Counted from the first letter of the stretch, positions 3,943 to 39,951 are shown. The stretch is DNA of 64,000 nucleotides from an uncultured Candidatus Rokubacteria bacterium (GCA_963708025.1 CAVPSB010000031.1:160001-224000); one strand, 5' to 3'. Numbers and translations: made by a program. The notes: a model not told the origin generated them from the sequence alone.

Positions 3943-5798
3943 GCGAGTTCCTGCGGCTCTCGCGGGTCACGGCCGCGTCGCGGCCCCCGGAGCTCGCGGT
4001 GGCGGTGCGGGGGGGCCGCCCGCTTCCCTGGTCCACGCTGGTGGCCGACGTGGGGAGGCTCGCGACCGCACTGGAGGCCCGGGGCGGCGGCGCCTGGCTC
4101 CTGTTCGCCGAGGACTGCTACGCCTTCACGGTCGGCCTGCTGGCGATCTGGCAGGCGGGAGGGACGGCCGTGGTTCCGCCGAACGACCAGCCGGGAACGG
4201 TCGCCAGCCTGGGGGAGGGACTCCAGGGCCTCGTGGGCGATCGGTCGCTCGCGGCGCCGGGGCTGCCGGCGCTCGACCCGCTCGCGGCCGGCGACGTGCC
4301 CGCGTGGGAGTGGCGTCCGCTCGCCGAGGACGTCCCGCGGCTCTTGCTCTGCACCTCGGGGACGACCGGCGCCCGCAAGGCGATTCCGAAGACGCTGGCG
4401 CACCTGGCCGACGAGGTCGAGGGGCTCGAGGAGCGCTGGGGCGCGCGGCTCGCCGGGCGGCCCGTGTTCGCGACGGTGTCCCACCACCACATCTACGGCC
4501 TGCTCTTCCGACTCCTCTGGCCGCTGTGCGCGGGGCGGCCCTTCGTGTCGGAGGTCTATTCCCACGCCGATGAGCTCGTGCCGCGCTTGCGGGCGGCCGG
4601 CCGCGCCACGCTGGTGAGCGCCCCCGTTCACCTCCGGCGCCTCCGGCAATCGCGGGACTTCCGGGCGCTCGGCAATGCCTGCCAGCCAGTGTTCTCGTCG
4701 GGGGGGCCGCTCGACGAGGAGACCGCTGACGCCCTGCTGGACGCCCTGGGCGAGGCCCCCATCGAGGTGTTCGGCTCGACCGAGACGGGGGGTGTCGCCT
4801 GGCGGCAGCAGTCGCGAGACCCCTCCCGGCTGGCCTGGACTCCGTTTCCCCGGGTCGAGGTGAGCGCGGAGCCCGACGAGAGCCGGCTGGTGGTGCGGTC
4901 GCCGTTCGTGAGCCTGGAGGCGCCGGCCATTCACTTCATCATGAGTGACCGGGCCGACGCCTGGCCGGACGGTCGCTTCCTGCTGCTCGGCCGTGGCGAC
5001 CGCATCGTCAAGGTCGGCGAGGCGCGGGTCTCGCTTCTCGAGATGGAGGCGCGACTCCGCGAGCACCCCTGGGTGGCCGATGCGGGGCTGACACTGCTGC
5101 ACCGCGGACCCGAGGCCCGGATCGCGGCGGTCGCCGTGCTGACCCCGGGCGGTCGCGAGGCCCTGGCGCGGGAAGGGCGGGGCCCCGTCGGGACCATGCT
5201 CCGACACCATCTCGGGCTGCACTGGAGCGCCGCGCTGCTGCCGCGCGTCTGGCGGTACGTCGATCGACTCCCCGAGGACGCGCAGGGCAAGGTCTCGACC
5301 GCGGCGCTCCGCGCGCTCGTGTCGCCCATGGACGACCGGTCCGTGGTCTCGGCGGAGCTGATCGAGGAGCGGCGCGATGACCGGGTCTGCGAGCGCGCCC
5401 TGCGGGTGCCGCTCGACCTCGCCACGCTGGAGGGGCACTTCCCCGGGTTCCCGGTCGTGCCCGGCGTGGTCCAGGTCCAGTGGGCGCTGGAGGCAGCCCG
5501 CGCGCTGGCCGGCCTCGACCTCCAACTCGCCGCGTTCGACGTGCTCCGGTTCAAGAGCCTGCTGCGGCCCGGCCAGACCTTCCGCCTGCGGGTGGAGCTG
5601 TCTGAGAGCGGCGAGGCGCTGAGATCTTCGGGACCTCCCTCCCACCCCCCCGGCCCCCCTCCCCCACCCACTGGGGGGAGGGGGGAGGTGGAGGCCCCGA
5701 TTCATTCACACGTCTTGACCTTCCGCCTGTGGAACGGGATCACGGTATTCTCGTCCGGCCGGGCGCGGGTCGCCCGGCCGAAGGCGCCCGCGTGGTGA
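3939..5798 (+). CDS. Acyl-AMP ligase fused to hot-dog dehydratase (ApeH+ApeI-like)
   Basis: CTSGTTGARK, HHIYGLLF, FGSTETGG, GRGDRIVK; C-terminal GHFPGFPVVPGVVQ; carries a 32-aa repeat-derived insert. Confidence 0.88.
   Translation: MSEFLRLSRVTAASRPPELAVAVRGGRPLPWSTLVADVGRLATALEARGGGAWLLFAEDCYAFTVGLLAIWQAGGTAVVPPNDQPGTVASLGEGLQGLVGDRSLAAPGLPALDPLAAGDVPAWEWRPLAEDVPRLLLCTSGTTGARKAIPKTLAHLADEVEGLEERWGARLAGRPVFATVSHHHIYGLLFRLLWPLCAGRPFVSEVYSHADELVPRLRAAGRATLVSAPVHLRRLRQSRDFRALGNACQPVFSSGGPLDEETADALLDALGEAPIEVFGSTETGGVAWRQQSRDPSRLAWTPFPRVEVSAEPDESRLVVRSPFVSLEAPAIHFIMSDRADAWPDGRFLLLGRGDRIVKVGEARVSLLEMEARLREHPWVADAGLTLLHRGPEARIAAVAVLTPGGREALAREGRGPVGTMLRHHLGLHWSAALLPRVWRYVDRLPEDAQGKVSTAALRALVSPMDDRSVVSAELIEERRDDRVCERALRVPLDLATLEGHFPGFPVVPGVVQVQWALEAARALAGLDLQLAAFDVLRFKSLLRPGQTFRLRVELSESGEALRSSGPPSHPPGPPPPPTGGRGEVEAPIHSHVLTFRLWNGITVFSSGRARVARPKAPAW
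5623..5718 (+). repeat. ~96-bp hairpin MITE/REP-like element, copy 1 (in frame in CDS)
   Basis: TTCGGGACCTCCCTCCCAC..CCCCCTCCCCCACCCACTGGGGGGAGGGGGGAG..ATTCATTCACACG; closely matches 39841-39927; TGA on both flanks. Confidence 0.85.
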
Positions 5799-6532
5799 AC
5801 CCCTGCCTCCTCATCCCCATCTACAACCACGGGGGGACGATCGGCGGGGTCCTCGACCGGCTGGAGCCGATGGGACTGCCGTGCCTCGTGGTCGACGACG
5901 GGAGCGACGCGCCGACCCAGGCGGTGCTGGCCGATCTCGCCCGCCGCTTCGCCTGGCTGCGACTCGATCGCCTGCCGCGGAATCGCGGGCGGGGCGCCGC
6001 GCTCCGGCACGGCTACCTCTTGGCGGCCCGGCTCCACTTCACCCACGCGGTTCAGCTGGACGCCGACGGGCAGCATGACCCCGCCGACGTGCCGCGGCTC
6101 CTGGCGGCGGCGCGCGACCGGCCCGAGGCGCTCGTCCTCGGCGTGCCGGTCTTCGAGGGCCCGGTGCCCGCGAGCCGCCGGTACGGCCGCCTCCTGTCGT
6201 GCTTCTGGGTGTGGATCGAGACGCTCTCCCTGGACGTCCGCGATCCCCTCTGCGGCTTCCGCTGCCTGCCGCTGGCCCCGACCGTCGCGCTGCTGGCCCG
6301 GACGCCGCTCGGCGACCGGATGGAGTTCGATCCGGAGATCGTGGTCCGGCTGATGTGGGCCGCCGTCCCGGTGGTGAGCGTCCCCGTCCGCGTCCGCTAC
6401 TTCCCCGAGGGCGTCTCGCACTTCCGGCTGGTCCGTGACAACGCGCTGATCAGCTGGGCCCACACCCGCCTGGTGCTGGGCATGCTCCGCCGGCTGCCCG
6501 GGCGGCTCGTCGGGCACCGCGTCGCGTCATGA
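5795..6532 (+). CDS. Glycosyltransferase family 2 (ApeJ N-terminal half-like)
   Basis: LLIPIYNH, VVDDGS, QLDADGQH, DPLCGFR, MEFDPEI, GVSHF. Confidence 0.9.
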   Translation: MNPCLLIPIYNHGGTIGGVLDRLEPMGLPCLVVDDGSDAPTQAVLADLARRFAWLRLDRLPRNRGRGAALRHGYLLAARLHFTHAVQLDADGQHDPADVPRLLAAARDRPEALVLGVPVFEGPVPASRRYGRLLSCFWVWIETLSLDVRDPLCGFRCLPLAPTVALLARTPLGDRMEFDPEIVVRLMWAAVPVVSVPVRVRYFPEGVSHFRLVRDNALISWAHTRLVLGMLRRLPGRLVGHRVAS

Positions 6533-7470
6533 GCCGGCGCCGGCACTGGAGCGCGGTGGCGGAGCGCGGCTCGATCGCCGGCATGCGGCTCACCGTCTGG
6601 ATCCACCGGCGGTTCGGCCAGCGGCTCACGTCCCTGTTCGTGCTGCCCATCGTGGTCTACTTCTTCGTGACGGACGCCCGCGGACGCCGCGCGTCGCAAC
6701 GCTACCTCCAGCGGCTGGCGACGTGGGCCGGACCGGAGTCGCCGGTGCCGCGGTCGCCCCGCCTGCGACACGCCTTCCGGCACTACTGGGAGTTCGCGCT
6801 GTCGATCCTCGATCGCCTCAGCCTGTGGTCGGGCCACGGCGAGGGGTTCGACATCCGGTTCCACGGGCGCGATCACTTCTCGACGTTGATCGAGGCCAAG
6901 CGCGGCGCCATCCTGCTGGGCGCCCACCTGGGGAGCTTCGACGTCCTCCGGGCGCTGGGCGCGCAGTGTGCGGTCCGGGTGAACGTGCTCATGTCCCGGG
7001 CCCACGCCTCCCGGATCAACGCAGTACTGCGGGAGCTCCATCCTGGCGTCGACCTGCACGTGATCGAGTTCCAGCCGGGCTCGAGCGGCCCCCTGTTCGC
7101 GATGAAGGCGTGTCTGGAGCGCGGGGAGTTCGTGGCGATCCTCGCCGACCGGGTCGGCGCCGCGCCCCGGGCCCGAAGCGTCCCGGTGCGATTCCTCGGG
7201 CACCCGGCGGCGTTTCCGGCGGGACCCTTCGTCCTGGCCAGCCGGCTCGGGTGCCCGGTGCTGCTCGTGGTCGCGCTCCGCCGGGGCCCCCGGACGTACG
7301 AGGTGTTCGCGGAGCCCTTCACGGACCGCGTGGAGCGGCGGCCGGGAACGCGCACCGGCGGGCTCGACGAGGTGGTGGAGGCGTACGCGCGCCGGCTGGA
7401 AAGCTACTGCCTCCGCGCGCCGTATCAGTGGTTCAACTTCCACGACGTCTGGGACGGGGAGGGGGCATGA
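6529..7470 (+). CDS. LpxL-type acyltransferase (ApeJ C-terminal half-like)
   Basis: [33 protein letters not shown]. Confidence 0.88.
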
Positions 7471-7940
7471 CGACGGACGCGCCCGCCTTCCCCCCGATCG
7501 AGGACGTGCTGCCCCACCGGGCGCCCATGATGCTGCTCGATGCGATCGTGGCGCACGACCCCACCGGGACCGCGTGCGTCGTGCGGATCGGCGAGACGTC
7601 GCTGCTCGGCCCCCCGGGGGGCCCGGTTCCCGCCTGGGTCGGCCTCGAGTACATGGCGCAGTGCATCGCGGCTCACGCGGGACTCCTCGCCCGGGCCGAG
7701 GGACGGGGACCGGCCATCGGCTTCCTGATCGGCGCCCGGGACCTGGAATTCCACTCGGCGGGCTACGCGCCGGGCCAGGTCCTCGAGGTGTCGGCGCGGC
7801 GCCTCTGGGGCGAGGGCAGCCTGGGGGCGTTCGCGTGCGCGCTGCGCGACGCCGCCACCGGCGCCGTGCTGGCCGAGGGCACCGTGAACGCGTTCCTGCC
7901 GCGACGCCTCGACGAGCCGGCCCCGGACCCGCCGCCGTGA
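7467..7940 (+). CDS. 3-hydroxyacyl-ACP dehydratase partner (ApeP-like)
   Basis: [28 protein letters not shown]. Confidence 0.87.
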
Positions 7941-8662
7941 GCCGGCAAGTCCTGGTGACGGGCGCCAGCCGCGGCATCGGGCGCGCGATCGCCGTCGAGA
8001 TGGCCCGGGCCGGCTTCCAGGTCGTCATCGGCTACCACGTGAACACGACGGCGGCCGAGGAGACCGGCCGGCTCGTCGCCGTCGCCGGCCGCCCGGCCCG
8101 GGCGCTGCGCTTCGACGTCGCCCGGCGGGACGACTGCGAGGCGGTCCTGGCCGCGGACGTGGCCGAGCACGGCGCCTACTGGGGGATCGTCTGCAACGCG
8201 GGCATCCACGCGGACGCGCCGTTCCCCGCGCTCTCCGGCGACGCCTGGGACCGCGTGATCCGGACGAACCTGGACGGCTTCTACAACGTGCTGCGGCCGC
8301 TGGTGATGCCGATGGTCCGGGCCCGACAGGGCGGACGCATCGTGACCATCTCCTCGATCGCGGGACTGGTCGGCAACCGGGGCCAGGTCAACTACAGCGC
8401 GGCCAAGGCCGGCCTGATCGGCGCCACCCGGGCGCTCGCCCAGGAGCTGGCCAAGCGCCGGATCACCGTGAACAGCGTCGCGCCCGGCCTGATCGACACG
8501 GAGATGCTCGCCGGCATCCCGGTGGAGGAGGTGGTCAAGCGGATTCCCATGCGACGGCTGGGGACGCCGGAGGAGGTGGCGGCGACGGTCGCCTTTCTCT
8601 GCTCGGATGCCGCCGGGTACATCACCGGCCAGGTGATCTCGGTGAACGGCGGTCTGGCGTGA
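7937..8662 (+). CDS. fabG: 3-oxoacyl-ACP reductase (ApeQ/FabG-like)
   Basis: [21 protein letters not shown] (YxxxK), SVNGG. Confidence 0.92.
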
Positions 8663-9909
8663 CACGCCGGGTCGTGGTCACCGGGATGGGCGGCGTCTGC
8701 CCGCTCGGGGAGGGCTGGACGTCGGTGCGGGAGAAGCTGCGCGCCGGGACCTCGGGTGTCGTGTCGATGCCGGAGTGGGCCAAGTACGACGGTCTGGGGA
8801 CGCGGCTCGCGGCGGCGGTGCCGGACTTCGTGACGCCCAAGCACTACCCGCGGCAGAAGATCCGCACCATGGGGCGGGTGGCGCTCCTCGCCACCCGGGC
8901 CAGCGAGCTGGCGCTCGAGGATGCCGGCCTGCTGGGAGCGCCGGAGCTGGGCGACGGCTCGGTCGGGGTGGCGTACGGGTCGACGTCGGGCAGCCCGCCG
9001 GCGATGGAGGTTTACGCCCGCCAGGTGTGGGCGAACCACACGACCCGGGGGATCGCCGCCACCGACTACGTCCGGTTCATGAGCCACACCTGCGCGGCGA
9101 ACCTCGCGCTCTTCTTCGGGTTGCGGGGCCGGATCATCCCGACCAGCAGCGCCTGCACGTCGGGCAGCCAGGGGATCGGCTACGGGTACGAGGCCATCCG
9201 GTTCGGCCGTCAGGCGATGATGCTGACGGGAGGCGCCGAGGAGCTTCACGTCATCGACGCCGCGGTGTTCGACATCATGTACGCGACGTCGACGCGGAAC
9301 GACGAGCCGGCGCGCAGCCCGCGTCCCTTCGACGTCGGGCGCGACGGGCTGGTGGTCGGCGAGGGCGCCGGCACCCTCATCCTGGAGGACCTCGGGCACG
9401 CCCGGGCGCGGGGCGCGCGGATCCACGCGGAGGTCGTCGGCTTCGGCACGAACTGCGATGGGCGCCACATCACGAATCCGGACGCCGAGGGCATGCAGCG
9501 GGTGATGGAGCTCGCCCTGGCCGACGCCGGCGTGGAGCCGTCGGCCATCGGGTACGTCAATGCCCACGGCACCGCCACGAAGCTGGGGGACGTCGCGGAA
9601 AGCCTCGCCATGCACCGGGTCTTCGGCCCGGCGGTGCCGGTGAGCTCGCTGAAGAGCTACCTCGGTCACACGCTCGGCGCCTGCGGGGCGCTCGAGGCGT
9701 GGCTCACCATCGCGATGATGCGCGAGGGCTGGTTCGCGCCCACCATCAACCTGGAGACGGTGGACCCGCAATGCGCGCCGCTCGACTACATCCAGGGCGC
9801 GCCGCGCGCGCTGGATGTGGAGTACGTCATGAGCAACAACTTCGCGTTCGGGGGCGTCAACACCTCCCTGGTGTTTCGCCGGTGGATCGAAGGCGAGGGG
9901 GCCGCCTGA
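8659..9909 (+). CDS. Beta-ketoacyl-ACP synthase (ApeR-like)
   Basis: TSSACTSG catalytic Cys, [18 protein letters not shown]. Confidence 0.93.
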
Positions 9910-9977
9910 TGCGGCGGGGGGTCACGAGGACCCGACAGCCCGGCTCATGACCGGGACCCGTGAACGGGAGGACCACA

Positions 9978-10384
9978 TGAGTGCGCGACTGCTGACAGCG
10001 TTCGCCTTGATCGTCTCGACGCTGACTGCCGCGGGATGTCAGACGGCACCGATCCGGAACGTCACGGGCGCTTCGCTGAGCGCGGCGCCGGGTACCACGC
10101 TCACCATGGACCAGGTTGCAAAAGCGATCGGGCGCGCCGGGCAGCGGCTCGGGTGGCAGATCGAGCAGGTCCGCCCGGGGGAATTGACCGGCACGCTGAA
10201 GCTCCGGAGTCACGTCGCCGTGGTGTCGATCACCCATGACACGTTGACCTTCAGCATCCGCTACCGTGAGAGCACGAATCTCTTGCAGAGTGGCCAGGAG
10301 ATCCACAAGCGCTACAACACCTGGGTGCGGAACCTCGAGATGGGGATTCAGCAGGAGGTGGCGATCGGCTCGGCCGCCCGCTGA
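9978..10384 (+). CDS. Putative lipoprotein
   Basis: GGAGG RBS; signal peptide ending AAG-C; C-terminal IHKRYNTWVRNL. Confidence 0.75.
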
Positions 10385-11109
10385 CCGCGGCGCCAGGTCC
10401 AGCGCCGCCGCCCCGAGCCGAGCGTGAGCCGGGACTCGGCCGACAGGAGCCAGCGGAGGAATTCGATCGCCCGGGGCCAGGGTGGCTCTCCCGGTCCCTT
10501 ACCGGCGTCGAGCCGGAGGGCGACGTCGTCGGCGTCGCCGAGGGCGCTCGTCAGCAGAAGGGCGACGGCGTAGGCGGCCGGCCGGTCATCGGCGAAAGGC
10601 GCGAAGACCGGCGGGAGCGGCTCATCCCCGACGACGAGGAGGACGGCGGGATCGGTGCCGCGCGCCAGGACGCTCTGCGCTTCGAGGAACGCGCAGGGGA
10701 AGGTGTCGTGGCCGGCGGCCATGGCGCAGGATGCCCGCCGGTTGCCGGCCGCGATGGAGAAGAGTCCGGCCTGGGTGTTGTGGACGGAGTGGCTGAAGCG
10801 GTTCGCCTTCAGCGGCTCCTGGCGCGCCAGCGCCTCGAGCAGCCCCACCGTGGCGGTCATGTCGCCGTACCGCGACGCGAACACGGTCGGCACGCGCGAG
10901 AGCTCATCCGGGGGACAGCAGTCGAACGCCACCCGGAGCATCATCCGACTCAGCCGGCCGCAGCGCCGGCGGAAGAGTGGCGGCAGGAACGCGACGTCCG
11001 GGGCGCCGTCGAGGGCCAGCAGCGCCGGCGCCCGGCACCAGGCGACCCACGCGGCCTGGTCCTCGAGGCCCGGCGCCCAAGCGGCCCACCGGCGGACGAG
11101 CGCGCTCAT
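10348..11109 (-). CDS. Ketosynthase chain-length factor (ApeC-like)
   Basis: PPLFRRR, VFASRYG, FSHSVHN, VVGDEPLP; no catalytic Cys/His set; ATGA overlap with upstream KS. Confidence 0.85.
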   Translation of the reverse strand: MSALVRRWAAWAPGLEDQAAWVAWCRAPALLALDGAPDVAFLPPLFRRRCGRLSRMMLRVAFDCCPPDELSRVPTVFASRYGDMTATVGLLEALARQEPLKANRFSHSVHNTQAGLFSIAAGNRRASCAMAAGHDTFPCAFLEAQSVLARGTDPAVLLVVGDEPLPPVFAPFADDRPAAYAVALLLTSALGDADDVALRLDAGKGPGEPPWPRAIEFLRWLLSAESRLTLGSGRRRWTWRRGQRAAEPIATSC

Positions 11110-12317
11110 GGCGGCGGGCCGTCTCCGACGACGAGCGTGGAGTCGTTGCCGCCGAAGCCGAACGAGTTGCTCAGGAGCACGGCACGCCCCGGCGGCCGGG
11201 CGCGCTCGCCGGGCGCCACCAGCCGGATCGCGGGGAGGGCGGCATCCGGGACGCCGTCCCAGCAATGCGGCGGCAGGTCGAGGAGACCGTCGCGCCGCCG
11301 CGTGAGCATCAGCCAGCAGATGCCCAGCTCGATCGCGCCCGAGGCGCCGAGCGTGTGTCCCACCAGGGGCTTCGTCGAGCTGCAGGGCACCCGGTCACCG
11401 AGGACGCGGTTCACGGCCCTGGCCTCCATGGCGTCGTTCAGCGCGGTGCCCGTCCCGTGGAGATTGACGTAGCTGACCTCCCGGGCTTCCACCCCCGCGT
11501 CGTCGAGCGCCCGGAGCATCGCCATCTCGGCGCCGGTCCCCTCGGGGTCTGGAGCGGACATGTGGTGGGCCTCGCTGGCCGCCCCGGTCCCGAGGAGCTG
11601 GACGCCGCCGGGGTCCCGTGTGAGCAGGAACAGCGCGGAGCCTTCACCCAGCGTCAGGCCCTTCCGGTTGAGGCTGAACGGGTTGCTCGGCGCGTCGGAC
11701 ACCACCTGGAGCGCGCTGAAGCCGCCGGCGGTCAGCCGGCAGATCGAATCGGTTCCTCCGGCGACGACGGCGTCGCACACCCCCTGGGTGAGCAGCGCGC
11801 GGCCGGACTCGAGGGCCCGCGCTCCGGACGAGCAGGCCGTCGAGATCGTGTAGGCCGGTCCGGCGATCCCCGCGTACTCGGCGAGGAAGACGGCCACCCC
11901 GCCGAATTCCACCTGGACACAATCGAAGCTTGCGGGGAGGCGGCTGGTGCGACGGTGCTCGGCGATCGCCTCCTCGGCGGCGCCGATGCCCGCGGTGCTC
12001 GATCCGGCGACGATCCCGACGCGCTCGGGCCCGACCGCGGCCATGACTGCCCGCACCGTCGCCTCGATCTGCACGAAGGCGGCGAGCGACAGCGAGTTGT
12101 TCCGGCACGCGTGCCGGGACAGCGCCGCCGGGATCTCCGGCAGGCGGTCGGACACTTCGCCCACCAGCAGCGAGCGGCCCGGGACGAGGTCCTCGCGGCG
12201 ATGAAGACGAGACTGGTCGGCAGCCAGGACCCGCGACCAGATCGTGTCCAGGTCGCTCCCCAGGGCGTTCACCATCCCGAGAGCGGCCAGCGCGCAGGGG
12301 GCGGACGAGCGACTCAC
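11106..12317 (-). CDS. Beta-ketoacyl-ACP synthase (ApeO-like)
   Basis: ISTACSSG, NLHGTGT, GHTLGA, SNSFGFGG; start placed at GTG 12317 (uncertain). Confidence 0.9.
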   Translation of the reverse strand: MSRSSAPCALAALGMVNALGSDLDTIWSRVLAADQSRLHRREDLVPGRSLLVGEVSDRLPEIPAALSRHACRNNSLSLAAFVQIEATVRAVMAAVGPERVGIVAGSSTAGIGAAEEAIAEHRRTSRLPASFDCVQVEFGGVAVFLAEYAGIAGPAYTISTACSSGARALESGRALLTQGVCDAVVAGGTDSICRLTAGGFSALQVVSDAPSNPFSLNRKGLTLGEGSALFLLTRDPGGVQLLGTGAASEAHHMSAPDPEGTGAEMAMLRALDDAGVEAREVSYVNLHGTGTALNDAMEARAVNRVLGDRVPCSSTKPLVGHTLGASGAIELGICWLMLTRRRDGLLDLPPHCWDGVPDAALPAIRLVAPGERARPPGRAVLLSNSFGFGGNDSTLVVGDGPPP

Positions 12318-12342
12318 GCCACGGTCGGCCGCCGATGCGGCA

Positions 12343-13620: not shown

Positions 13621-13698
13621 GATCCCGGATTATGACCGCGACGCCGGCGCTGTCAACGCGCTTGCCGGGAGTGGTAGGCTGGGAGCGAGGAGGCGTCC

Positions 13699-14999: not shown

Positions 15000-15015
15000 T
15001 CCCGTTTCCGGGCCT

Positions 15016-15854: not shown

Positions 15855-16085
15855 ACTTCACCATTCCTGTCCTGCCGGTTCACGCGGTGACGGCCGTCAG
15901 TAAGACCCGGCCCTCCGTCGTGCAAGCCGACTGTCGAGACCCAAGGAGGCAAGATACGCTCACCCGGGACTCCGGACGGTGGGACTACTCGGACAGCCTA
16001 GACATCCTGCGGGATGGGTAGGCCAGCAAAGCGCGACCCAGAGGCCTCCAGCTCCCCTGATGGCCGGAATGGAGGGAACGACGAC

Positions 16086-30648: not shown

Positions 30649-31028
30649 CACTCGCGCCCGGCTGGAACATCTCTGCCGGTATCACTCCGCCCCCCACTGG
30701 TCGAGGACCGGGTCCGGCTCCGGACGGATATACATGACACCCGGCAGCGGCCGCCGCGTGTCGCCGTCGCCACCGACGGGCGGAGACGGAGTCTCGCTGG
30801 GTCCGACGTGATCGCGACGGCGCATTGTGTTGACTACCCCCAGGCCCCCGGAGCGGGGGACACGGCGCTGAAGTGGGCGTGTGCGCCGCCTACGTTCCGT
30901 TCCTGCCTGCGTTCCTTGCGAGGGCCTGGCCTGAGACTGATGGTCGTCTTCGGGCAGGTGAACGGGGACGTCTTGCCGGCTCCGGGTGGACCTTTCGGCG
31001 TCTCGATGAGATAGTGGGAATCGGAGCC

Positions 31029-32678: not shown

Positions 32679-32699
32679 GGCAAGGCGAGGGGAGTGTGA

Positions 32700-32726
32700 T
32701 GTCGATTCCGGGCTCTGCCGAACGAC
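32700..32726 (+). promoter_or_regulatory. ECF42-type promoter
   Basis: TGTCGA-N17-CGAC upstream of the SRPBCC gene. Confidence 0.6.
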
Positions 32727-32815
32727 TAACTGGCGTGCACAGCCGTTGGCGGGAGGGCCTGGGGCCCCTTCGAGGGTTCCCCTATCCAGGGACCGAAGAC
32801 GCGAGGAGCGGAGCC

Positions 32816-33391
32816 ATGAAGGAGATTCTCATCGTGCTCGGGATCGGCATCGCGGGGTTTCTGGCGTTCGCGGCGACCCGCCCTCATAGGTACCAGGTGG
32901 AGCGGTCGCGGAAGATCGACGCGCCGGCGGAGATCGTCTTCGCGCAAATCGAGGACTTCAGGGCGTGGCCGGCCTGGTCGCCCTGGGAGAAGGTCGATCC
33001 GGACATGAAGCGGACCTACGAAGGCCCGGCCAGGGGCGTCGGGGCGGGTTACGCCTGGGACGGGAACCGGCATGTCGGCAAGGGGAAGATGACCATCACG
33101 CAGTCCACGCCTTCTACGGCCATCTCATGCCGGCTGGAGTTCATGAAGCCCTTCGTCTCGGTCGCCACCACCGGCTTCACCCTCGAGCCGGCAGGGGACC
33201 AGGCCGTGACCGTCACCTGGTCGATGGACGGGAACAACAACTTCACCGGGAAGGTGTTCTCAATCTTCATGAACATGGACAAGATGATCGGCGGCCAGTA
33301 CGAAAAGGGGCTCGCGAACCTCGAGCTGGTCGCCAAGGCGGCGGCCAAGGAACAGGCCGATGTCGTCGCGGCCGCGCCGAGGAGGAAGTAG
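32816..33391 (+). CDS. SRPBCC (START-like) family protein
   Basis: VERSRKIDAP, WPAWSPW, GVGAGYAW, VGKGKM, MDKMIGGQYEKGL. Confidence 0.9.
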   Translation: MKEILIVLGIGIAGFLAFAATRPHRYQVERSRKIDAPAEIVFAQIEDFRAWPAWSPWEKVDPDMKRTYEGPARGVGAGYAWDGNRHVGKGKMTITQSTPSTAISCRLEFMKPFVSVATTGFTLEPAGDQAVTVTWSMDGNNNFTGKVFSIFMNMDKMIGGQYEKGLANLELVAKAAAKEQADVVAAAPRRK

Positions 33392-33495
33392 CTGCCAGGC
33401 GGCACCGGCGACGCCTCGGGGCTCTCGACCCGGCCGCGCCGGGGTTGGCACCGAGAACCTCCGGGACGCCCGTGCCGCCGTCTGACTCGCGATCT

Positions 33496-33927
33496 TCAAG
33501 GGCGGCTCCGGGCTTGGCTGGCCGGGTGGAGCGCTGACGGGTGAGACGACCCGCGATGCGGCGCCAGCCGCCAGCGGCCGTAGGCGACGAACGCCGAGAG
33601 GAGCCCCACCACCAGCGGGATCAGCGCCGGCGCCACTCCATCCGCCACCAGCGTGAGCACCGTCGCGCCGATCATGATGATCACCAGCCCGGCGGCCGCC
33701 AGCGGGGTCAGGCCCGGCCGAATGCGCAGGAGCCCGGGGAGGATCAGGCCGAGCGCGCCGAGCACCTCGGCCACTCCGATGAATCGCACGAACCAGCCCG
33801 GCAGCTGGATCTGATTCGGTGAGCCCATCGACATCAGCACGTCCAGCGGCAGGATCAGCTTCGTCCCACCGGCGAACAGAAAGGTGAGCGCGAGCAGCCC
33901 CTGAACGATCCACAGTGCATAGGTCAT
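33496..33927 (-). CDS. DoxX family membrane protein
   Basis: ALWIVQGLLA, FIGVAEVLGALGLILP, LTPLAAAGL. Confidence 0.9.
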   Translation of the reverse strand: MTYALWIVQGLLALTFLFAGGTKLILPLDVLMSMGSPNQIQLPGWFVRFIGVAEVLGALGLILPGLLRIRPGLTPLAAAGLVIIMIGATVLTLVADGVAPALIPLVVGLLSAFVAYGRWRLAPHRGSSHPSALHPASQARSRP

Positions 33928-34085
33928 GATCGGAAGGTCTCCTTTTTCAGGCCTTCGCCACAAAGGCCGCGAGGCGTTCCAGACTTTGTGACCAGCCCGC
34001 TCCCATCCCCTCGAGATACGGGGCGGCCTCGGCGGTCGCTTTGACGACGCGGGCTTGCAACGTGACAGCAGGGCTTACGTGACCC

Positions 34086-34383
34086 CTAGCCGCCGGCCAT
34101 GGCCCCCACGATCAGAAACGGCTCGGCCCCCGTCGCGACCGCGTCGGGCAGCGGGGCGTCCGGCGGCTCGTGGGACAGATCCTGCTCGCAGGCGAAGAAC
34201 CTCACGAACGGCTCGGCGCTGCTGCGTGACGTGGTCGCGGATCGTCCCGCGCAGCATCGGATAGCGGGCCTCGAGCGCGTCGAGGACCGAGCGCTGCGTG
34301 ACCTGACCCTCGACGTCGAGCTTCACCTCGCCGTCGACGCGCGCCAGCGTCCGCAGATGTGCCGGGAGCACGACTCGGATCAT
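34086..34383 (-). CDS. MoaD/ThiS ubiquitin-like protein, frameshifted near 34212
   Basis: [11 protein letters not shown]...[10 protein letters not shown], then after a shift [13 protein letters not shown]...IVGAMAGG* (C-terminal GG). Confidence 0.82.
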
Positions 34384-35494
34384 GGCAGCGTCTGGACCTC
34401 GACGGACAGCACGGCCGGAAGATCCCGGACGATGGGCGCCCAGCTGTCCCCGGCATCGGCCGACGCGTACACCTGCCCGCCGGTGGTGCCGAAGTACACG
34501 CCGCACGAATCGAGCGAGTCGACGGCCATCGCGTCGCGCAGCACGTTGACGTAGCAGTCGCGTTGCGGCAGACCCTTCGTGAGCGCCTCCCACTCGTTTC
34601 CGCCCGTCCGGCTGCGGTACACGCGCAGCTTTCCCTCGGGCGGATAGTGCTCCGAGTCGCTCTTGATCGGGACGACGTAGATGGTGTCCGGCTCGTGCGC
34701 GTGCACGTCGATCGGGAACCCGAAGTCGGTCGGCAAGTTCCCGCTGACCTCGTGCCACGACTCGCCGGCGTCGTCGCTGCGCATGACGTCCCAGTGCTTC
34801 TGCATGAACAGCACGCCCGGACGCGACCGGTGCATCGCGATGCGGTGAACGCAGTGGCCGACCTCGGCAGTCGGGTCGGGGATGCCTTCGGACTTCAGGC
34901 CGCGGTTGATCGGCCGCCACGTCTTGCCGGCGTCGTCGGTCCGGAACGCGCCCGCGGCCGAGATGGCGATGAAGATCCGCTCGGGATCGCTCGGATCCAG
35001 CAGGATCGTGTGCAGGCACATCCCACCGGCGCCCGGCTGCCAGAGGGCCCTGATCCGTGGCCGCGCAGTCCGGGGAGCTCCTGCCACGTCTGCCCGCCGT
35101 CGGTCGAGCGGAACAAGGCGGCGTCTTCCACCCCGGCGTAGACCGTGTCCGGATCGGTCAGCGACGGTTCGAGATGCCAGACGCGCTTGAACTCCCAGGG
35201 GTGCGGCGTGCCGTCGTACCACTGGTGCGTGCCGGGGACGCCGTCGTACACGAACTTGTTCCCCACCGGCTCCCACGTCTTGCCGCCGTCGTTGGAGCGC
35301 TGGATCAGCTGCCCGAACCAGCCGCTGGACTGCGACGCATACAGCCGATTCGGGTCAGCGGGCGATCCCTTGAGGTGGTAGATCTCCCAGCCCGCAAAGT
35401 GGGGGCCACTGACGTCCCACCGTTCGCGCTTTCCGTCCGACGTCAGGACGAACGCGCCCTTGCGTGTGCCAACCAGTACCCGTACCCCGCTCAT
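34380..35494 (-). CDS. BNR/Asp-box beta-propeller (sialidase-like) protein, frameshifted near 35050
   Basis: VLVGTRKG and repeated SxDxGxTW boxes across ORFs 34895..35494 and 34380..35276. Confidence 0.87.
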
Positions 35495-35593
35495 CTCTCA
35501 CTCCTTCCTGAGCTTCCAGGGATTCTCGACCGCCCACCGTCGCGCCCACTCCGATGCCACGCGGCACATCGGGGCGCCTCCTCTCACTGTATA

Positions 35594-35620
35594 GTCGAAC
35601 GGGCCGGCTCGAGATCGACA
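35594..35620 (-). promoter_or_regulatory. ECF42-type promoter
   Basis: Minus strand TGTCGA-N17-CGAC upstream of BNR-MoaD. Confidence 0.6.
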
Positions 35621-36022
35621 GCCTCGGCGAACGAGAGGATGTCGCCTGGCCGAGGGGTCAACGCCCTGGCCCGCCGGTACCCCCGCCATGGCCACCTGAC
35701 CTCGAACTGACCGCCCCCGACTGATCGCCCAGGGGGACCAAGTCTTCCGAGCCCGCCGGCGGCGGGTCCGGCCAGCCGCGTCCCGCTACTCTCCTCCCGC
35801 GTTGCCCTACCCTCCCGCCGCTCTCGCCGCCTGCGTCGGGGGCGCGACGTGTACCGCCAGGTGCCGCCCTTGACACGGGCCGCGCCGGCCGCGCACCATC
35901 GGGGCGGAGCGGCGTTGGTCTGCCAGCCCCCCTGGGGGGCCGGCCGAGAAGTCGAGCCCCTGTCCGAGGCGAGAGCGTCCTGCCCTTCCCGGCTGGTACA
36001 ACGTAGGGCAAAGATCATAGCG

Positions 36023-37954
36023 ATGCTGGCACTTGGGCTCCTTCCCTTCTTTTGCATTGTCGGCATCCTGTGGGCGCTGTCAAAGGTCTTCCACATTGGA
36101 TGGCGGAGTGCCATCTTGTCGGCGTCCGTTGCATGCGGACTCATTGTCACGGTGACGACCGAGATCTTGAGTCTCTTCAAACTGGTGACCTTTGGCTGGG
36201 TGACGGCCGTCTGGGGCGCAGCTGTGCTCCTGTCCATTGGCGCGTTGTGCCATGCGCACGTGACACGCGCGGGACGAATCCCTGGCTCCCTGGCTACAGC
36301 CAGTCCCGGAGATGGGCGACGAAGCATCTCGTCTGTTGGATGGGGCTTGACGGCGGTCCTCGGTGTGGCGGCGGCTCTGATCGGTCTGATCGCCCTGCTT
36401 GCGCCGCCCAACACCTGGGACTCGATGACCTACCACATGGCGCGCGTTGCGCATTGGATCCAGAATCGGACGGTCGCCCATTACCCCACTCACATCATGA
36501 GACAGCTCTATCAACCTCCATGGGCGGAATACGCCATCATGCACCTTCAAATCCTGAGCGGTGGAGATCGTCTCGCCAATCTGGTGCAGTACCTCAGCTT
36601 CATCGGCAGCGCGGTGGGGGCATCGCTCATTGCTGAACAGCTCGGAGCCGACTCACGTGGCCAGCTGCTGTCAGCGGTCATCGTTGCCACCATCCCGATG
36701 GGGATCCTTCAGGCCTCGAGCACCCAGAACGACTATGTCGTCACCTTGTGGCTGGTGACGCTGGCCTACGCCTGTTTGTTGTTCAAGGCCAGGCCGACGT
36801 GGGCCAGCGCATTCGGGGTCGGGACGTCCTTGGGGCTGGCCGTGCTGACCAAGGGGACTGCGTACGTCTATGCCCCTCCGTTGCTGTTCATGTTGGCGCC
36901 TACGATGGTCAAGGCCCGAGGCTGGCGACCGATTGTGCCGATTCTCGCGGTGTTCATGGTTCCAGTGGCTCTCAATCTTGGGCACTACGCGAGGAACTTC
37001 GAGCTGGAGGGCAATCCGCTCGTGACCGCCCCTGGCGTCGTGAACGAGACGTTCGGAGTCAGCACGTTGGTGTCGAACATGATCCGGAGCGCGGCCCTGC
37101 ACCTGGCAACGCCGATCCGCGAGGTGAACGAGGTCATCGTGAGAGACATCCGGCACGGCCTCACGTCGCTGGGTATGGACGCCGACGATCCCCGCACGAC
37201 GTGGGCCGGGATGCGGTTTGGGATTCGCGAGACTTCGACGCATGAAGACCGAACGGGAAATCCCCTGCATCTGGTTCTCATGGCGTGGTCGGTGGGAGCC
37301 TGCCTGCTGAAGAAGGAGTTGAGAGGACACAAGATCCTGTTGGGCTATCTGGCGGCGCTGATCGCCGGGTCTTGCCTGTTCGCGCTCGTGCTGAAATGGC
37401 AACCGTGGCACAGCCGGTTGCATCTTCCCTTGTTCGTGCTCTTTTCGCCGGTCGTCGCGGTGGCCTTGGCGCGGACGGTGAAGGGGAAGGCCGCAGTGGC
37501 GATCGGTCTTGGCCTGGCTCTGGTGTCGCTCCCGTGGCTGCTCGGAAACCGAAACCGGCCTGTTGTTGGCGACCGAAGCGTTTTCAGTACGCCCCGGGAA
37601 GAACAGTACTTCGTCCATCGGCCCTTTCGGCGGGAGCAGTACGAAGGCATGGCGCGGGTGGTAAAGGCGACTGGGTGTCGTGAGGTCGGGATCTTGGCGG
37701 GAGAGAACGACTGGGAATATCCGCTCTGGGTTCTGCTCGACGCGGTGGATGGGAGGCATCCGACGGTTCGATTGGAACACGTCAATGTCCAGAACGCTTC
37801 CGCAGCAAAGGGTAGGGTGCGTCGGTATAGACGGTTCAGCCCTTGCGCGATAGTCGCTCTTGATGGTCGAGACAGCAAGGATGTTGCGGTGAAGGGTACC
37901 GTGTACGAAAGAGAGTGGTCACTGGGTCGCGTGAGCGTGTTCACCAGGCGCTAG
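36023..37954 (+). CDS. ArnT/GT39-like polytopic membrane glycosyltransferase
   Basis: PNTWDSMTYH, QASSTQND, LTKGT, KWQPWHSRLH, WEYPLW; many TM helices. Confidence 0.85.
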   Translation: MLALGLLPFFCIVGILWALSKVFHIGWRSAILSASVACGLIVTVTTEILSLFKLVTFGWVTAVWGAAVLLSIGALCHAHVTRAGRIPGSLATASPGDGRRSISSVGWGLTAVLGVAAALIGLIALLAPPNTWDSMTYHMARVAHWIQNRTVAHYPTHIMRQLYQPPWAEYAIMHLQILSGGDRLANLVQYLSFIGSAVGASLIAEQLGADSRGQLLSAVIVATIPMGILQASSTQNDYVVTLWLVTLAYACLLFKARPTWASAFGVGTSLGLAVLTKGTAYVYAPPLLFMLAPTMVKARGWRPIVPILAVFMVPVALNLGHYARNFELEGNPLVTAPGVVNETFGVSTLVSNMIRSAALHLATPIREVNEVIVRDIRHGLTSLGMDADDPRTTWAGMRFGIRETSTHEDRTGNPLHLVLMAWSVGACLLKKELRGHKILLGYLAALIAGSCLFALVLKWQPWHSRLHLPLFVLFSPVVAVALARTVKGKAAVAIGLGLALVSLPWLLGNRNRPVVGDRSVFSTPREEQYFVHRPFRREQYEGMARVVKATGCREVGILAGENDWEYPLWVLLDAVDGRHPTVRLEHVNVQNASAAKGRVRRYRRFSPCAIVALDGRDSKDVAVKGTVYEREWSLGRVSVFTRR

Positions 37955-38058
37955 TGACGCACATCGCGAGGCAGGGCTTCGGCGCATGCCACCACATCGT
38001 CGGTCGTCCCGCAGCGGCAGGTCGCGGCCGTCGGGCTTTCGCTCCTACGCGCCCCTCG

Positions 38059-38373
38059 TCACCCCGTCGGAAGATGCTTCATTGCGATGGAGACCGCCTC
38101 CTGCGCCGAGTGGCCGACGTGCACCACGATCTTCACGTCGGCCCGTGATGTGATGTAGGTCGTGCGGGCCGTCTGCGCGTTTATGAAGTCGGCCAGCTTG
38201 GCATTATCCACATCGAAGAGAAAGAGCACATGGACGCCTTGGTCATCGCCGTAGGTGAACGACGCAATCTCCGTGGCGTCGGCTGGTCGCTTGGGTGTCT
38301 CGGGCGACATGAACAGATCGAGCGCGGTCCGGCCCTCCGTTTGAGAAAAGGTCGTGTGAACGAGTACTCGCAT
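38059..38373 (-). CDS. Hypothetical protein
   Basis: GAGGAG RBS; MRVLVHTTF... globular composition. Confidence 0.65.
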   Translation of the reverse strand: MRVLVHTTFSQTEGRTALDLFMSPETPKRPADATEIASFTYGDDQGVHVLFLFDVDNAKLADFINAQTARTTYITSRADVKIVVHVGHSAQEAVSIAMKHLPTG

Positions 38374-38390
38374 CGCAAGTGTCTCCTCGT

Positions 38391-38539
38391 CGCTGAATGA
38401 CCTTCGTCCGCCCGCAGCAGCACCGACTGCCGGATGGTGAGGCCGAGGGTCTTGGCGGGATCGAGGTGCCGATGGTTTGATCGTCCACGTGGCCGAGGTC
38501 CCGCAGTCCCTGCCGAAAGGCATCGATCAAGCTGGACAC
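38391..38539 (-). pseudogene. ABC substrate-binding (ABC_sub_bind) relic, internally deleted
   Basis: DAFRQGLRDLGHV (N-terminal motif) lies next to KTLGLTIRQSVLLRADE (C-terminal motif). Confidence 0.75.
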
Positions 38540-38841
38540 AGGGAAGGACTGGTGCCTGACAACGCGATGCGGGGGGTCTTCTCCTGCTCCTGCGCCCCCA
38601 TGGATACCGGCGCGGCGAGGAGGAGGGAAGGAGGGCGACCGCCAACACCGTCATGTGTCCTTCCGATGGCCGGGATGCTACGGCGGGAGGCGGGCGGGGT
38701 CAACCCGGAACCTTGGGAGCGGGGGGTCAGGCCTTTCATTCTCGACACTCCGCGGCAGCGCCGCGCCGTGCCGGCTGGCGAGCCGCTGAGCCGCGCTGGC
38801 GCCACCCCTCCGGCGGTCGATGGCGTAAGATGCGAGCAACG

Positions 38842-39951
38842 ATGCGGCTGAGCGTCCTCGACCAGTCCCCGGTCCGGAGCGGTGGGACTCCCGCCGACGC
38901 CGTGCGCGAGACCCTGGAGCTGGCCGAGGCCGCCGACCGGCTCGGGTACCACCGCTACTGGCTGGCCGAGCACCACGCGACGCCCGGCCTGGCTGGCTCC
39001 TGTCCGGAGATCCTGATCGGCGCCGTCGCCGCCCGCACGAGCCGCATCCGGGTCGGCTCGGGCGGGGTCATGCTGAGCCACTACCCGGCGCTCAAGGTGG
39101 CCGAGCAGTTCCGGATGCTGGCGCTGCTCCACCCCGGGCGCATCGACCTCGGGATCGGCCGGGCACCCGGCGCCGACCAGCGGACGGCGCGGGCGCTCCG
39201 GCAGCGTCCCGAGGCGCTGGAGGCCGAGCCGTTCCCGGAGCAGGTCGCCCAGCTCATCGGGTTCCTCCACGACGCGCTGCCGCCCGAGCATCCCCTGGCC
39301 GGGATCCAGGCGATGCCGGCCATCCCGGACGCGCCGGAGCTGTGGCTTCTCGGCTCGACCGACGGCAGCGCGGCCTGCGCCGCCCACTTCGGCACCGCGT
39401 TCTCGTTCGCCCACTTCATCAACGCCGACGGCGGCGCCGCCGTCACGCGCGCCTACGTCCGCCAGTTCCGGCCGTCGCCGGTCCTGGCGAGCCCCCACGC
39501 CAGCGTCGCCGTGTTCGCGCTCTGCGCCGACAGCGAGGCGGAGGCGCGGCAGCTCGCCGGCTGCCGGGATCTCTATCTCCTCCGGCTCTACACCGGGCGG
39601 GCCGGTCCGTTCCCGTCGGTGGAGGAGGCCCAGAGTTACTTCTACACCGAGGCCGAGCTGGCGATCGTCCGCGAGGTCGGGCGGCGCACCATCGCCGGGC
39701 CACCCGGAGCGGTCCGCGAGCGACTCCTGGCGCTGGCGGCCGAGTACGACGTGGACGAGCTCGTCGTCGTGACGATCACCCACGAGTTCAAGGCCCGGCT
39801 GCGGTCGTACGAGCTCCTGGCGGAGGCGTTCGACCTCAGTTCGGGACCTCCCTCCCACGCCCCCAAGCCCCCTCCCCCACCCACTGGGGGGAGGGGGGAG
39901 TCGGAGGACGCCATTCCTTCACACGCTCTCAGTCGCCACTCCCTCTCGTAG
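38842..39951 (+). CDS. Luciferase-like (LLM) flavin-dependent oxidoreductase with repeat-derived tail
   Basis: MRLSVLDQSP, WLAEHH, GSGGVML, RIDLGIGRAPG, RLRSYELLA. Confidence 0.92.
   Translation: MRLSVLDQSPVRSGGTPADAVRETLELAEAADRLGYHRYWLAEHHATPGLAGSCPEILIGAVAARTSRIRVGSGGVMLSHYPALKVAEQFRMLALLHPGRIDLGIGRAPGADQRTARALRQRPEALEAEPFPEQVAQLIGFLHDALPPEHPLAGIQAMPAIPDAPELWLLGSTDGSAACAAHFGTAFSFAHFINADGGAAVTRAYVRQFRPSPVLASPHASVAVFALCADSEAEARQLAGCRDLYLLRLYTGRAGPFPSVEEAQSYFYTEAELAIVREVGRRTIAGPPGAVRERLLALAAEYDVDELVVVTITHEFKARLRSYELLAEAFDLSSGPPSHAPKPPPPPTGGRGESEDAIPSHALSRHSLS
39835..39933 (+). repeat. Hairpin MITE/REP-like element, copy 2 (in frame in CDS)
   Basis: Matches 5623-5718; flanked by direct repeat CTCAGT at 39835 and 39928 (93-bp offset). 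Confidence 0.85.

Follow-up and report, generated by a model that had tools for sequence, protein, structure and literature searches.

In a 64-kb window (the whole stretch of DNA analysed here) we found two sequences, each inside a host gene, which are in all likelihood young copies of an abundant, mobile and non-coding G/C-rich hairpin repeat of about 90 nt that resembles MITE and REP elements. The copies of this family which persist in the genome are overwhelmingly intergenic and lie in one orientation to transcription. Those within genes are very probably rare accidents of an element which is normally found between genes, with a stop codon at its start and a putative ribosome-binding site at its end.

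Two copies in two host genes

The earlier note on this DNA had reported two copies of one hairpin element in two host genes, and our analysis agrees. The window contains exactly two occurrences of the central 30-mer, at 5655-5684 and 39868-39897, both of them on the + strand; this 30-mer appeared in none of 100 dinucleotide shuffles of the window and its expected number by chance is 0. An alignment of the two copies extends for about 90 nt, beyond which the sequences are unrelated. The features are as follows:

3939..5798, + strand: host gene 1, AMP-binding enzyme fused to an ApeI-like dehydratase (hotdog) domain, 619 aa (ORF and Pfam)
5620..5718, + strand: copy 1 (subfamily B), made up of TGA 5620-5622, the 93-nt element 5623-5715 and a second TGA 5716-5718
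5655..5684, + strand: central hairpin of copy 1, G/C stem of 11-12 bp and 8-nt loop; exact 30-mer
38842..39951, + strand: host gene 2, luciferase-like monooxygenase; start uncertain, ORF open from 38653
39836..39931, + strand: copy 2 (subfamily A), made up of TCA 39836-39838, the 90-nt element 39839-39928 and a second TCA 39929-39931
39868..39897, + strand: central hairpin of copy 2 (exact 30-mer and fold)
39989..41131, - strand: converging gene downstream of host gene 2
42827..42953, + strand: third copy, degraded, in the spacer between two minus-strand genes; 20.9 bits

Copy 1 extends the ORF of host gene 1 by 96 nt, or 32 codons, and splits GEAL from TFRL in the ApeI-like dehydratase domain, just as had been described. 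The protein reads ...SESGEAL-RSSGPPSHPPGPPPPPTGGRGEVEAPIHSHVL-TFRLWN..., with the insert at residues 562-593, within the hotdog domain; the Pfam matches are PF00501 at 127-307 and PF22818 at 490-557, the latter ending at profile position 89 of 119. The 32-residue block is absent from 15/15 homologues, and the host protein without it is colinear with them. We also found the empty site itself, in one contig each from the metagenome runs X2 (320 nt) and X3 (1114 nt), which come from different, independent studies and whose contig flanks differ from the window in 3-6% of letters. Both contigs join 5623 to 5720, omitting exactly 96 nt, and read ...CTGAG|C... with a single TGA. The block-free homologues, the colinearity and the 96-nt skip in two contigs mean that copy 1 is a true insertion. 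A flanking repeat longer than a triplet was not seen at this copy: only the 3-nt TGA is duplicated, and there is no 5-mer. In the predicted structure, residues 558-587 score below 50 in pLDDT and are flanked by confidently predicted strands at 547-555 and 591-598, although a low pLDDT in the insert is expected anyway since the alignment is empty there. Copy 1 may be tolerated because, within the hotdog domain, it occupies a beta-hairpin turn, and it is the one copy for which an insert inside a domain is demonstrated.

The description of copy 2 as lying at the end of the monooxygenase held for its flanks, with CTCAG on both sides (39835-39839 and 39928-39932) at an offset of 93, and needed correction for its place: the insert lies 6 codons upstream of the TAG stop, and the PF00296 match covers only residues 1-299 of 369, so that the insert is beyond it, in an unconserved C-terminal tail. 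The host gene gains 93 nt, or 31 codons, and the protein ends ...AFDL-SSGPPSHAPKPPPPPTGGRGESEDAIPSHAL-SRHSLS. Empty sites in relatives, which the earlier note had anticipated, were present here too, as the 31-residue block is absent from 11/11 orthologues examined, whose ends lie 5-6 residues past AF(G/D)L. Because the minus-strand gene at 39989..41131 converges on host gene 2, copy 2 lies within a 3' region common to two convergent genes. It may have been tolerated because it landed in the non-conserved tail.

Orientation and element frame relative to the host gene are identical in the two copies, as had been stated, and the common Pro/Gly peptide would be one element read in one frame. Both copies probably survive because the added 96 and 93 bases keep the frame and the landing places are tolerant. 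By profile score (nhmmer) they are among the least diverged members of the family, copy 1 with 86.4 bits (rank 15/486) and copy 2 with 90.9 bits (rank 3/486). The degraded third copy contains two nested mini-hairpins, and its orientation to its neighbours is the usual one of the family.

The family at operon junctions

The genome is an 8.2-Mb Rokubacteria-type assembly of 49 contigs, 99.67% complete and with an estimated contamination of 8.18%. It holds 486 nhmmer matches to the repeat, 265 of them full length, and the suggestion of a dispersed family of MITE/REP type was therefore well founded. According to a crude gene caller (7251 genes, 79% coding, start codons unreliable), 334/486 copies are intergenic and at most 18/486 (no more than 3.7%) lie within called genes, with 4 passing a strict coding test. 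Between co-directional genes, 176/265 full copies are in what we call the usual orientation and 19 in the opposite one (binomial p = 5e-33). This usual orientation is the reverse of the one which the window copies have within their host genes. Convergent spacers account for 32/265 copies and divergent ones for 11/265, and copies were also found in tandem, nested and within CDS. Subfamily B copies have the orientation opposite to the usual one.

At one end the element meets a stop codon. Its terminal TCA is the exact TGA stop of an opposite-strand gene in 104/265 full copies, and a same-strand stop lies at the other end in 17/265; among 240 anchored copies the flanking triplet is a called stop codon, the TGA of the upstream gene, in 102. 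This association comes partly from the target itself, since a stop is already present at 25% of the free non-CDS CTSAG sites, and the excess of stops among the copies is only about 1.7-fold. A check independent of the gene calls found the triplet at the end of a qualifying frame (at least 60 codons, GC3 of at least 0.8) in 93/227 copies (control offsets, 1 and 6). At the other end, the GGGAGG of the element lies 5-12 nt upstream of the next start in the frame of the downstream gene in 56/192 cases, against 5 and 3 in the other two frames. Judged by this spacing alone, GGGAGG may act as a ribosome-binding site. In the RNA folds, GGAGG is paired with CCUCC in the outer stem, which could hide rather than expose it.

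In 27 copies the whole spacer from stop to start is the element, and where relatives hold both genes, 9/10 loci have them separated by 7-22 nt. The orientation of the window copies has no stop in any of the three frames in 176/265 copies; the usual one has one open frame or none in 210/265, and in two of its three frames a stop follows within the first 14 nt. With the upstream TGA stop, the closed frames and GGGAGG at Shine-Dalgarno distance, a short spacer in an operon can be replaced or expanded while both proteins remain unchanged. The window copies are probably accidents in the other, stop-free orientation.

Is it possible that the element is built for operon junctions, as a mobile device which rewires the translation of operons in Rokubacteria and of which the in-frame inserts are a rare by-product? 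We suggest this only tentatively. Duplication of TGA would restore the upstream stop while the other two frames are closed within the first nucleotides, at TGATG/ATGA overlaps the downstream start would also be restored (e.g. C22:64330-64425), and a ribosome-binding site masked in the hairpin stem would be delivered along with the element. If so, a single insertion turns a tightly coupled pair, with the short spacing seen in relatives, into one spaced by about 90 nt, whose translation would be gated by structure and possibly uncoupled.

Alternatively, the copies could be kept mainly as an intercistronic RNA module of the host, a stable hairpin right behind the stop codon with its own ribosome-binding site, serving mRNA stability or translational coupling in operons, with mobility being secondary. 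We find this somewhat doubtful. It would account for the single orientation between co-directional genes, for the 27 whole-spacer copies and for the register of GGGAGG with start codons, but relatives manage these junctions with element-free spacers of 7-22 nt. The pairing of GGAGG in the outer stem is what a switchable site would show, and the part of PMC7518266 cited here proposes that structure right after stop codons controls re-initiation in operons. However, the spread of copies over convergent and divergent spacers, tandem and nested arrangements and CDS bears the signature of a selfish repeat, and subfamily B lies in the other orientation.

Target triplet, element ends and mobilising enzyme

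The TNA-type target put forward earlier was confirmed. The element inserts at T-N-A, for the most part as C-TGA-G, and this triplet is single in the empty site and afterwards found on both sides. The site of copy 1 shows one TGA when empty and two when filled, and copy 2 is bordered by CTCAG at either end, which is the target duplication of a MITE; nevertheless, only 78/240 anchored copies have the same triplet at both ends. Subfamilies A and B differ exactly at the end which adjoins the flanking triplet, and the triplet on their own strand is TCA for A and TGA for B; the right triplet is TCA in 95/137 subfamily A copies. The inverted repeat, TCGGGACCTCC paired with GGAGGACCCGA, begins 1-4 nt from one end and about 13 nt from the other and is thus subterminal. 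About 9/12 of its positions match, as judged by eye, and the right end is a 13-nt tail without an inverted partner. In its size the family is like a MITE, with about 90 nt, 486 matches and no transposase gene of its own. It is also like REP and REPIN elements in being an extragenic (334/486 intergenic), high-copy, imperfect palindrome with a hairpin fold. The fold of copy 1 has -49.7 kcal/mol on the + strand and -56.1 on the - strand (z about -2), and the hairpin folds range from -42 to -56 kcal/mol, with modest z-scores of -1.1 to -2.0. An Rfam search gave no family at gathering score; there were 6 matches at E <= 1, none of them close, and the best, a chance match to mir-150, reached 22.1 bits where the gathering score is 55.

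In MITEs of the IS5/Harbinger kind the duplicated triplet is T-N-A within a CTNAG-like palindrome. Canonical Harbinger elements, which are related to the IS5 family, make 3-bp duplications, according to the part of PMC12730594 cited here. Our element shares the 3-bp target duplication with IS5-family and PIF-Harbinger (Tourist-like) MITEs, and our favoured guess for the mobilising enzyme is a DDE transposase of this kind. Unlike in those MITEs, its terminal inverted repeats are poor, and no IS5-, IS427/IS1031- or Harbinger-type transposase was found in the assembly (no DUF4096, DDE_Tnp_1_2 or DDE_Tnp_4 domain; no match to the profiles PF13340, PF13586 and PF13359). The assembly has five DDE_Tnp_1 loci (three IS4, one IS701 and one broken copy), which we rejected as partners, as they have no matching ends and only chance 9-11-mers in common with the element ends. 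A search of the assembly for an insertion sequence with the ends of the element was negative, with the end motifs occurring outside known copies only twice, although a draft may lack repeated insertion sequences. An IS5, IS1182 or RAYT partner with matching ends, as the earlier note had envisaged, was thus not found in this assembly.

Could the element instead be of REP/REPIN type, moved by a RAYT-like HUH/Y1 enzyme acting on single strands, in which case TGA would be a target that it recognises and cleaves and not the product of a duplication by a DDE transposase? The long imperfect G/C hairpin with tails of 1-4 and about 13 nt and without true terminal inverted repeats would suit such an enzyme, as would the high-copy, extragenic position just past stop codons and the 48 adjacent same-strand pairs of copies no more than 10 nt apart. 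The difference between A with TCA and B with TGA at the adjacent end would fit recognition of the target through pairing with the element's end. We nevertheless think this unlikely, for one triplet in the empty and two in the filled site are the textbook sign of a duplication, and a search for Y1/RAYT (PF01797) gave no match at E <= 0.001 in the 99.67%-complete assembly while being positive in 6/14 control genomes. The orientation bias, too, can be explained by selection for the strand with stop codons and GGGAGG.

Copies in genes and comparison with known repeats

The earlier note saw the family as a generator of protein inserts, comparable to the Rickettsia palindromic elements (RPE). On such a view, in-frame colonisation of ORFs would be typical and perhaps beneficial to the host. 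The genome speaks against this, and we consider it quite improbable. Two in-frame copies of the same orientation and frame do lie in one 64-kb window, the window orientation is mostly stop-free in all three frames, and a few more copies (C13:43383 and C41:3322) leave a frame open that spans two neighbouring genes. Yet only a handful of copies pass the strict coding test, an internal domain insert is shown for copy 1 only, and the dominant copies have the reverse orientation and sit on stop codons and upstream of start codons. Element length modulo 3 is flat (48, 45 and 44 of 137 copies), so the in-frame lengths tell which insertions survived and are no inherent feature of the element. Of the unoccupied CTSAG sites, 4387/7282 (60%) are in CDS, against the at most 3.7% of copies in called genes, which points to purging rather than preference, and the low divergence of both window copies is as expected if such insertions are short-lived. 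That the Pro/Gly blocks are ancestral or similar by chance can be practically dismissed: apart from the low-complexity look of the peptide nothing favours it, and the homologues of both hosts lack the blocks, two contigs skip the 96 nt, and the DNA belongs to a 486-copy family with a 30-mer not expected by chance.

The earlier note did not recognise the family as described; in-frame insertions are, however, known from several bacterial repeats (in the parts of PMC10969869 and PMC3184786 cited here). It appears to be a new family within the known MITE/REP/MIRU-like class, and we set it beside RPE and MIRU by its features. RPE are small palindromic repeats whose open frames are joined in frame to host ORFs, to which they add a peptide, apparently at structurally tolerant places; for R. 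conorii the review reports 44 RPE integrations in genes, and close to half of the elements lie in ORFs (same part of PMC10969869). Copy 1 is exactly such an in-frame palindromic insertion that adds a peptide. Unlike RPE, only the few copies counted above are in genes, the normal niche is a stop codon and an operon spacer, and the element is G/C-rich, about 90 nt long and from another phylum.

The element also shares features with mycobacterial interspersed repetitive units (MIRU), which, in the cited part of PMC3184786, are 40-100 bp long, intergenic in polycistronic operons and overlap the adjacent genes with their ends; their filled sites show short direct repeats, relatives have the sites empty, and the units contain internal inverted repeats rich in G-C. 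Our copies likewise lie within operons in one orientation, their ends run into the neighbouring genes' stop and start codons, and they have flanking direct repeats, empty sites and G/C-rich inverted repeats. MIRU, however, number about 40-50 copies and have tetranucleotide repeats in that account, whereas here there are 486 copies, a T-N-A triplet, one dominant long hairpin, a GGGAGG end and a different phylum. With REP, BIME and REPIN the family shares high-copy, G/C-rich imperfect palindromes, extragenic and often just 3' of genes, and an inverted arm pair forming one long hairpin; it differs in the duplicated triplet flanking the copies, in that no Y1/RAYT gene was found in the assembly, and in its 90-nt unit, compared with 21-65 bp given for REPs (same part of PMC3184786). 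That part also describes functional signals carried by the Correia elements of Neisseria, and a promoter in Neisseria REP2, which has about 26 copies without terminal inverted repeats or target duplication. The element end that supplies GGGAGG upstream of start codons is comparable to these signals; unlike REP2, our element begins on the upstream stop codon and sits inside operons. Separately, we observed a 100-bp tandem array at C2:216051-216650, which we take to recall the MIRU-VNTRs.

Two insertions in the window

The earlier note held that one element adds the same peptide, in frame and in the same orientation, to two unrelated proteins, and this observation is confirmed. The central 30-mer of the hairpin occurs exactly twice in the window, at 5655-5684 and 39868-39897, both on the + strand, and not once in 100 dinucleotide-preserving shuffles. 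The two copies can be aligned over about 90 nt between unrelated flanks, and the translations of the two host ORFs hold both of the peptides quoted in that note, with identical orientation and element frame. The features concerned are these:

C31:160001-224000, the window, in the genome G000: 8.17-Mb assembly, 49 contigs, 71.2% G+C
3939-5798, + strand, host 1: AMP-binding enzyme fused to an ApeI-like dehydratase domain; the insert is residues 562-593
5620-5622 and 5716-5718, + strand: TGA flanks of copy 1, with 93 nt of element between
38842-39951 (start uncertain), + strand, host 2: luciferase-like monooxygenase; Pfam match over residues 1-299 of 369
39835-39839 and 39928-39932, + strand: CTCAG flanks of copy 2

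Copy 1 is a real insertion. No orthologue of host 1 was found in 20 other genomes of the same taxonomic family, and the comparison used distant database homologues, of which 31 were found and 15 aligned, the best at 68% identity. Without its 32-residue block, which these homologues lack, host 1 is colinear with all 15, and the Pfam match to the ApeI-like domain ends just ahead of the insert, at residue 557 (profile position 89 of 119). We also aligned metagenome contigs of public runs to window positions 5300-6000, which cover copy 1 and its flanks. Two contigs from different studies, one in run X2 (320 nt) and one in run X3 (1114 nt), agree with both flanks apart from 3-6% other letters. In each of them 5623 runs straight into 5720, with 96 nt missing in between, and the empty site, ...CTGAG/C..., has one TGA only. 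Runs X1 and X4 had no contig over these flanks, and of the 24 runs listed none was an RNA run. In all four runs the bins over the central hairpin reached depths of 74 to 2287, while the flanking bins 5492-5611 and 5708-5875 stayed at 8 or less, so the repeat is abundant in those bog, wetland and cave samples. Copy 1 is a clean natural example of how a mobile repeat can give an enzyme domain an internal loop of 32 residues, and the environment contains the site in its filled as well as its empty form.

The AlphaFold2 model of host 1 has a mean pLDDT of 81.1. Residues 558-587 fall below 50 and have no secondary structure, as is expected because the alignment is empty over that stretch. They sit between confident strands at 547-555 and 591-598, the final three insert residues being part of the second strand, and the insert is thus predicted to lengthen a beta-hairpin turn. 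Three homologues from metagenomes (P0026, P0028 and P0029) have a GT2 glycosyltransferase domain (PF00535) joined to the ApeI-like domain in place of the AMP-binding enzyme, and a separate ORF at 5792-6532 overlaps the end of host 1.

Copy 2 can likewise be taken as a real insertion, judging from the protein alignment. All 11 orthologues of host 2 examined, which come from the sister genus and are about 70% identical, end 5-6 residues past a conserved AF(G/D)L, and host 2 without its insert would finish AFDL-SRHSLS. Since the orthologues end so soon after this motif, the 31 residues supplied by copy 2 lie in a short unconserved tail. The alignment of host proteins proposed in the earlier note therefore finds the block absent from 15/15 homologues of host 1 and 11/11 orthologues of host 2.

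A repeat family of stop codons and operon spacers

A profile built from 18 long copies and searched against the whole genome gave 486 matches, 265 of them full length; at about 90 nt each, the 486 copies come by our estimate to roughly 0.5% of the 8.17 Mb. The window copies rank 3 and 15 of 486, which places both with the least diverged of the family, as would be expected of recent, possibly transient events. Two subfamilies can be told apart:

Subfamily A: TCA flank on the element's own strand; includes copy 2
Subfamily B: three extra bases at the left end and a TGA flank; 24 copies, including copy 1

Could the family be a generator of protein inserts, as had been proposed? Its mobility is borne out by the number of matches, the T-N-A target and the empty sites; the proposed role is not. 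Lengths modulo 3 are flat in subfamily A (48, 45 and 44 of 137), so the element as such is not bound to lengths divisible by three. By our own codon-usage gene caller, which called 7251 genes, 334 of the 486 copies are intergenic, 75 overlap the 3' end of a gene, 59 run into a 5' end as called (start calls are unreliable) and 18 lie inside called genes; the element thus confuses gene calling at 59 gene starts and 75 gene ends. A strict coding test, which demands an open frame through the copy and coding signal on both sides, was passed by four copies, with copy 1 scoring highest and C13:43383, C41:3322 and C25:159680 as the others. The first two of these lie between adjacent genes, their frame being open by chance. 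Set against 4387 of 7282 unoccupied CTSAG sites that are inside CDS, so few coding copies mean that coding insertions are strongly depleted. Inserts within genes survive only rarely, and the family has its real niche at stop codons and in operon spacers. The copy at C13:43383-43527 separates a hydantoinase A-like/B-like pair and that at C41:3322-3390 a dehydrogenase/PPOX-like pair (both named by eye); neither holds an in-frame stop, and in each case the ORFs read as one fusion.

At the right end of the full copies, the stop codon of an opposite-strand gene is the nearest feature in 210 of 265, and in 104 of 265 the terminal TCA is exactly that gene's TGA; a same-strand stop lies exactly at the left end in 17 of 265. 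The flanking triplet is a called stop in 102 of 240 anchored copies, compared with 25% of unoccupied non-CDS CTSAG sites. A test free of gene calls agrees with this: 93 of 227 copies have the triplet at the close of a reading frame that spans 60 codons or more and has a GC3 of 0.8 or higher, and the two control offsets gave 1 and 6. Read as the reverse complement of the window copies, which is the usual orientation, 176 of 265 copies have on both sides genes that run the element's way, and 19 have genes that run the opposite way (p = 5e-33). In this orientation the far end is GGGAGG, and 56 of 192 cases have their first in-frame start codon 5-12 nt beyond it, as against 5 and 3 when the other frames are read. 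In the usual orientation 210 of 265 copies have at most one open frame; in the window orientation 176 of 265 are open in all three.

In 27 cases the copy makes up the whole stop-to-start spacer, of 69-137 nt. We compared three such gene pairs in relatives, and in 9 of the 10 loci holding both genes these are 7-22 nt apart. The tenth (L068, on G001:C34), orthologous to the junction G000:C22:64330-64425, has a different repeat in its spacer. The right junction of the G000:C22 copy re-creates a TGATG stop/start overlap. At L068, a permease/ATPase-like junction, this other repeat, about 45 nt long, occurs twice in the 246-nt spacer, and junctions of this sort may serve as hot spots that take up other repeats in other lineages.

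In 13 full-length copies the second internal TGA of the element (offset -11) serves as the stop of the opposite-strand gene, which therefore takes its last three codons from the element. Stop usage in our gene calls was TGA 4808, TAG 2065 and TAA 354, and 851 TGA stops stand in the CTGAG context that the element prefers as a target.

Target site and mode of movement

The element inserts at a T-N-A triplet, which then stands on both sides of it, and the single TGA in the empty site of copy 1 bears out the TNA-type target suggested beforehand. The copies that survive are strictly associated with orientation, stop codons and start codons. We infer that insertions stay where they are harmless. Operon junctions would be such places owing to the element's own stop codons and its GGGAGG, a putative ribosome-binding site, and copies within genes in the stop-free orientation would last only if the frame was kept and a tolerant spot was hit. 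The element offers a testable model of a repeat that enters operons without polar damage. The boldest reading, which makes it a specialist of operon junctions that rewires the coupling of translation there, is tentative and rather doubtful.

The 3-bp duplication points to a candidate enzyme of the IS5/Harbinger kind, which prefers T-N-A targets. Duplication of 3 bp by this kind is supported by PMC12730594. A transposase with matching ends, for which the earlier note proposed a search, was not found: searches of the genome gave no match to Y1/RAYT, DUF4096, DDE_Tnp_1_2 or DDE_Tnp_4, and none of its five DDE_Tnp_1 loci (three IS4, one IS701 and one broken copy) has ends that match the element. 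Movement by a single-strand, REP/RAYT-like mechanism would fit one long hairpin with unequal tails and a flanking triplet that differs by subfamily, but the genome searches found no Y1/RAYT gene and we consider this mechanism improbable. Integron attC sites were considered because the hairpin follows stop codons in one orientation, and were set aside after inspection by eye, since the element ends do not match the GTTRRRY / RYYYAAC core sites; the spread of copies among ordinary genes on at least 28 contigs counts further against them.

Distribution and likeness to other repeats

Outside the window's own genome, the exact central 30-mer has no locus in 185,579 species genomes. A looser hairpin pattern gave at least 8 loci; among the matches listed, 4 are real short-form copies, titled Methylomirabilota, Rokuibacteriota or uncultured MAG, and the other 4 look like chance (3 without an nhmmer match, 1 at E = 0.057). 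Relatives in other genera of the same taxonomic family hold only a few short-form copies, which adjoin start codons. A search of the 31-residue insert peptide against 1.84 billion representatives was uninformative, its 2 matches both being unrelated repetitive Pro/Gly proteins, and in an Rfam search of the element no match came close to a gathering score.

In a 2024 review the in-frame fusion of small repeats with ORFs is described as "not unusual", RPEs being the extreme case (PMC10969869), and PMC3184786 lists several repeats that form internal, 3' or 5' fusions. The latter paper also describes MIRUs of 40-100 bp inside polycistronic operons, whose ends overlap the adjoining genes and for which relatives have empty sites, much like the present copies. 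By this comparison, the family joins known traits of RPE, MIRU and other repeats in a new phylum. We found no literature linking Rokubacteria, Methylomirabilota or Rokuibacteriota with such repeats, and the family appears to be undescribed.

Other repeats accompany the element, which also occurs in tandem. At G000:C2:216051-216650, upstream of a called gene (216639-217763), six tandem units of about 100 bp each combine the element with an ATG and the opening stretch (roughly 37 nt) of the gene downstream, an array that resembles a MIRU-VNTR array. A separate mini-hairpin of about 22 nt, with the core GACGGCCTTCGGCC, occurs genome-wide (with at most one mismatch, 335 and 342 matches on the two strands) and in the window at 42827-42953; it is nested in 167 of 486 copies of the main element, often in the loop. 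A companion palindromic hairpin, GGGGGTCTTCCGAGACCCCC, has 117 matches genome-wide at two mismatches or fewer, for example:

G000:C13:213300-213393, companion hairpin
G000:C2:285220-285306, companion hairpin

It often follows subfamily B copies and has their GAGATCTTCGGG lead in common, so several repeat types may share one end module.
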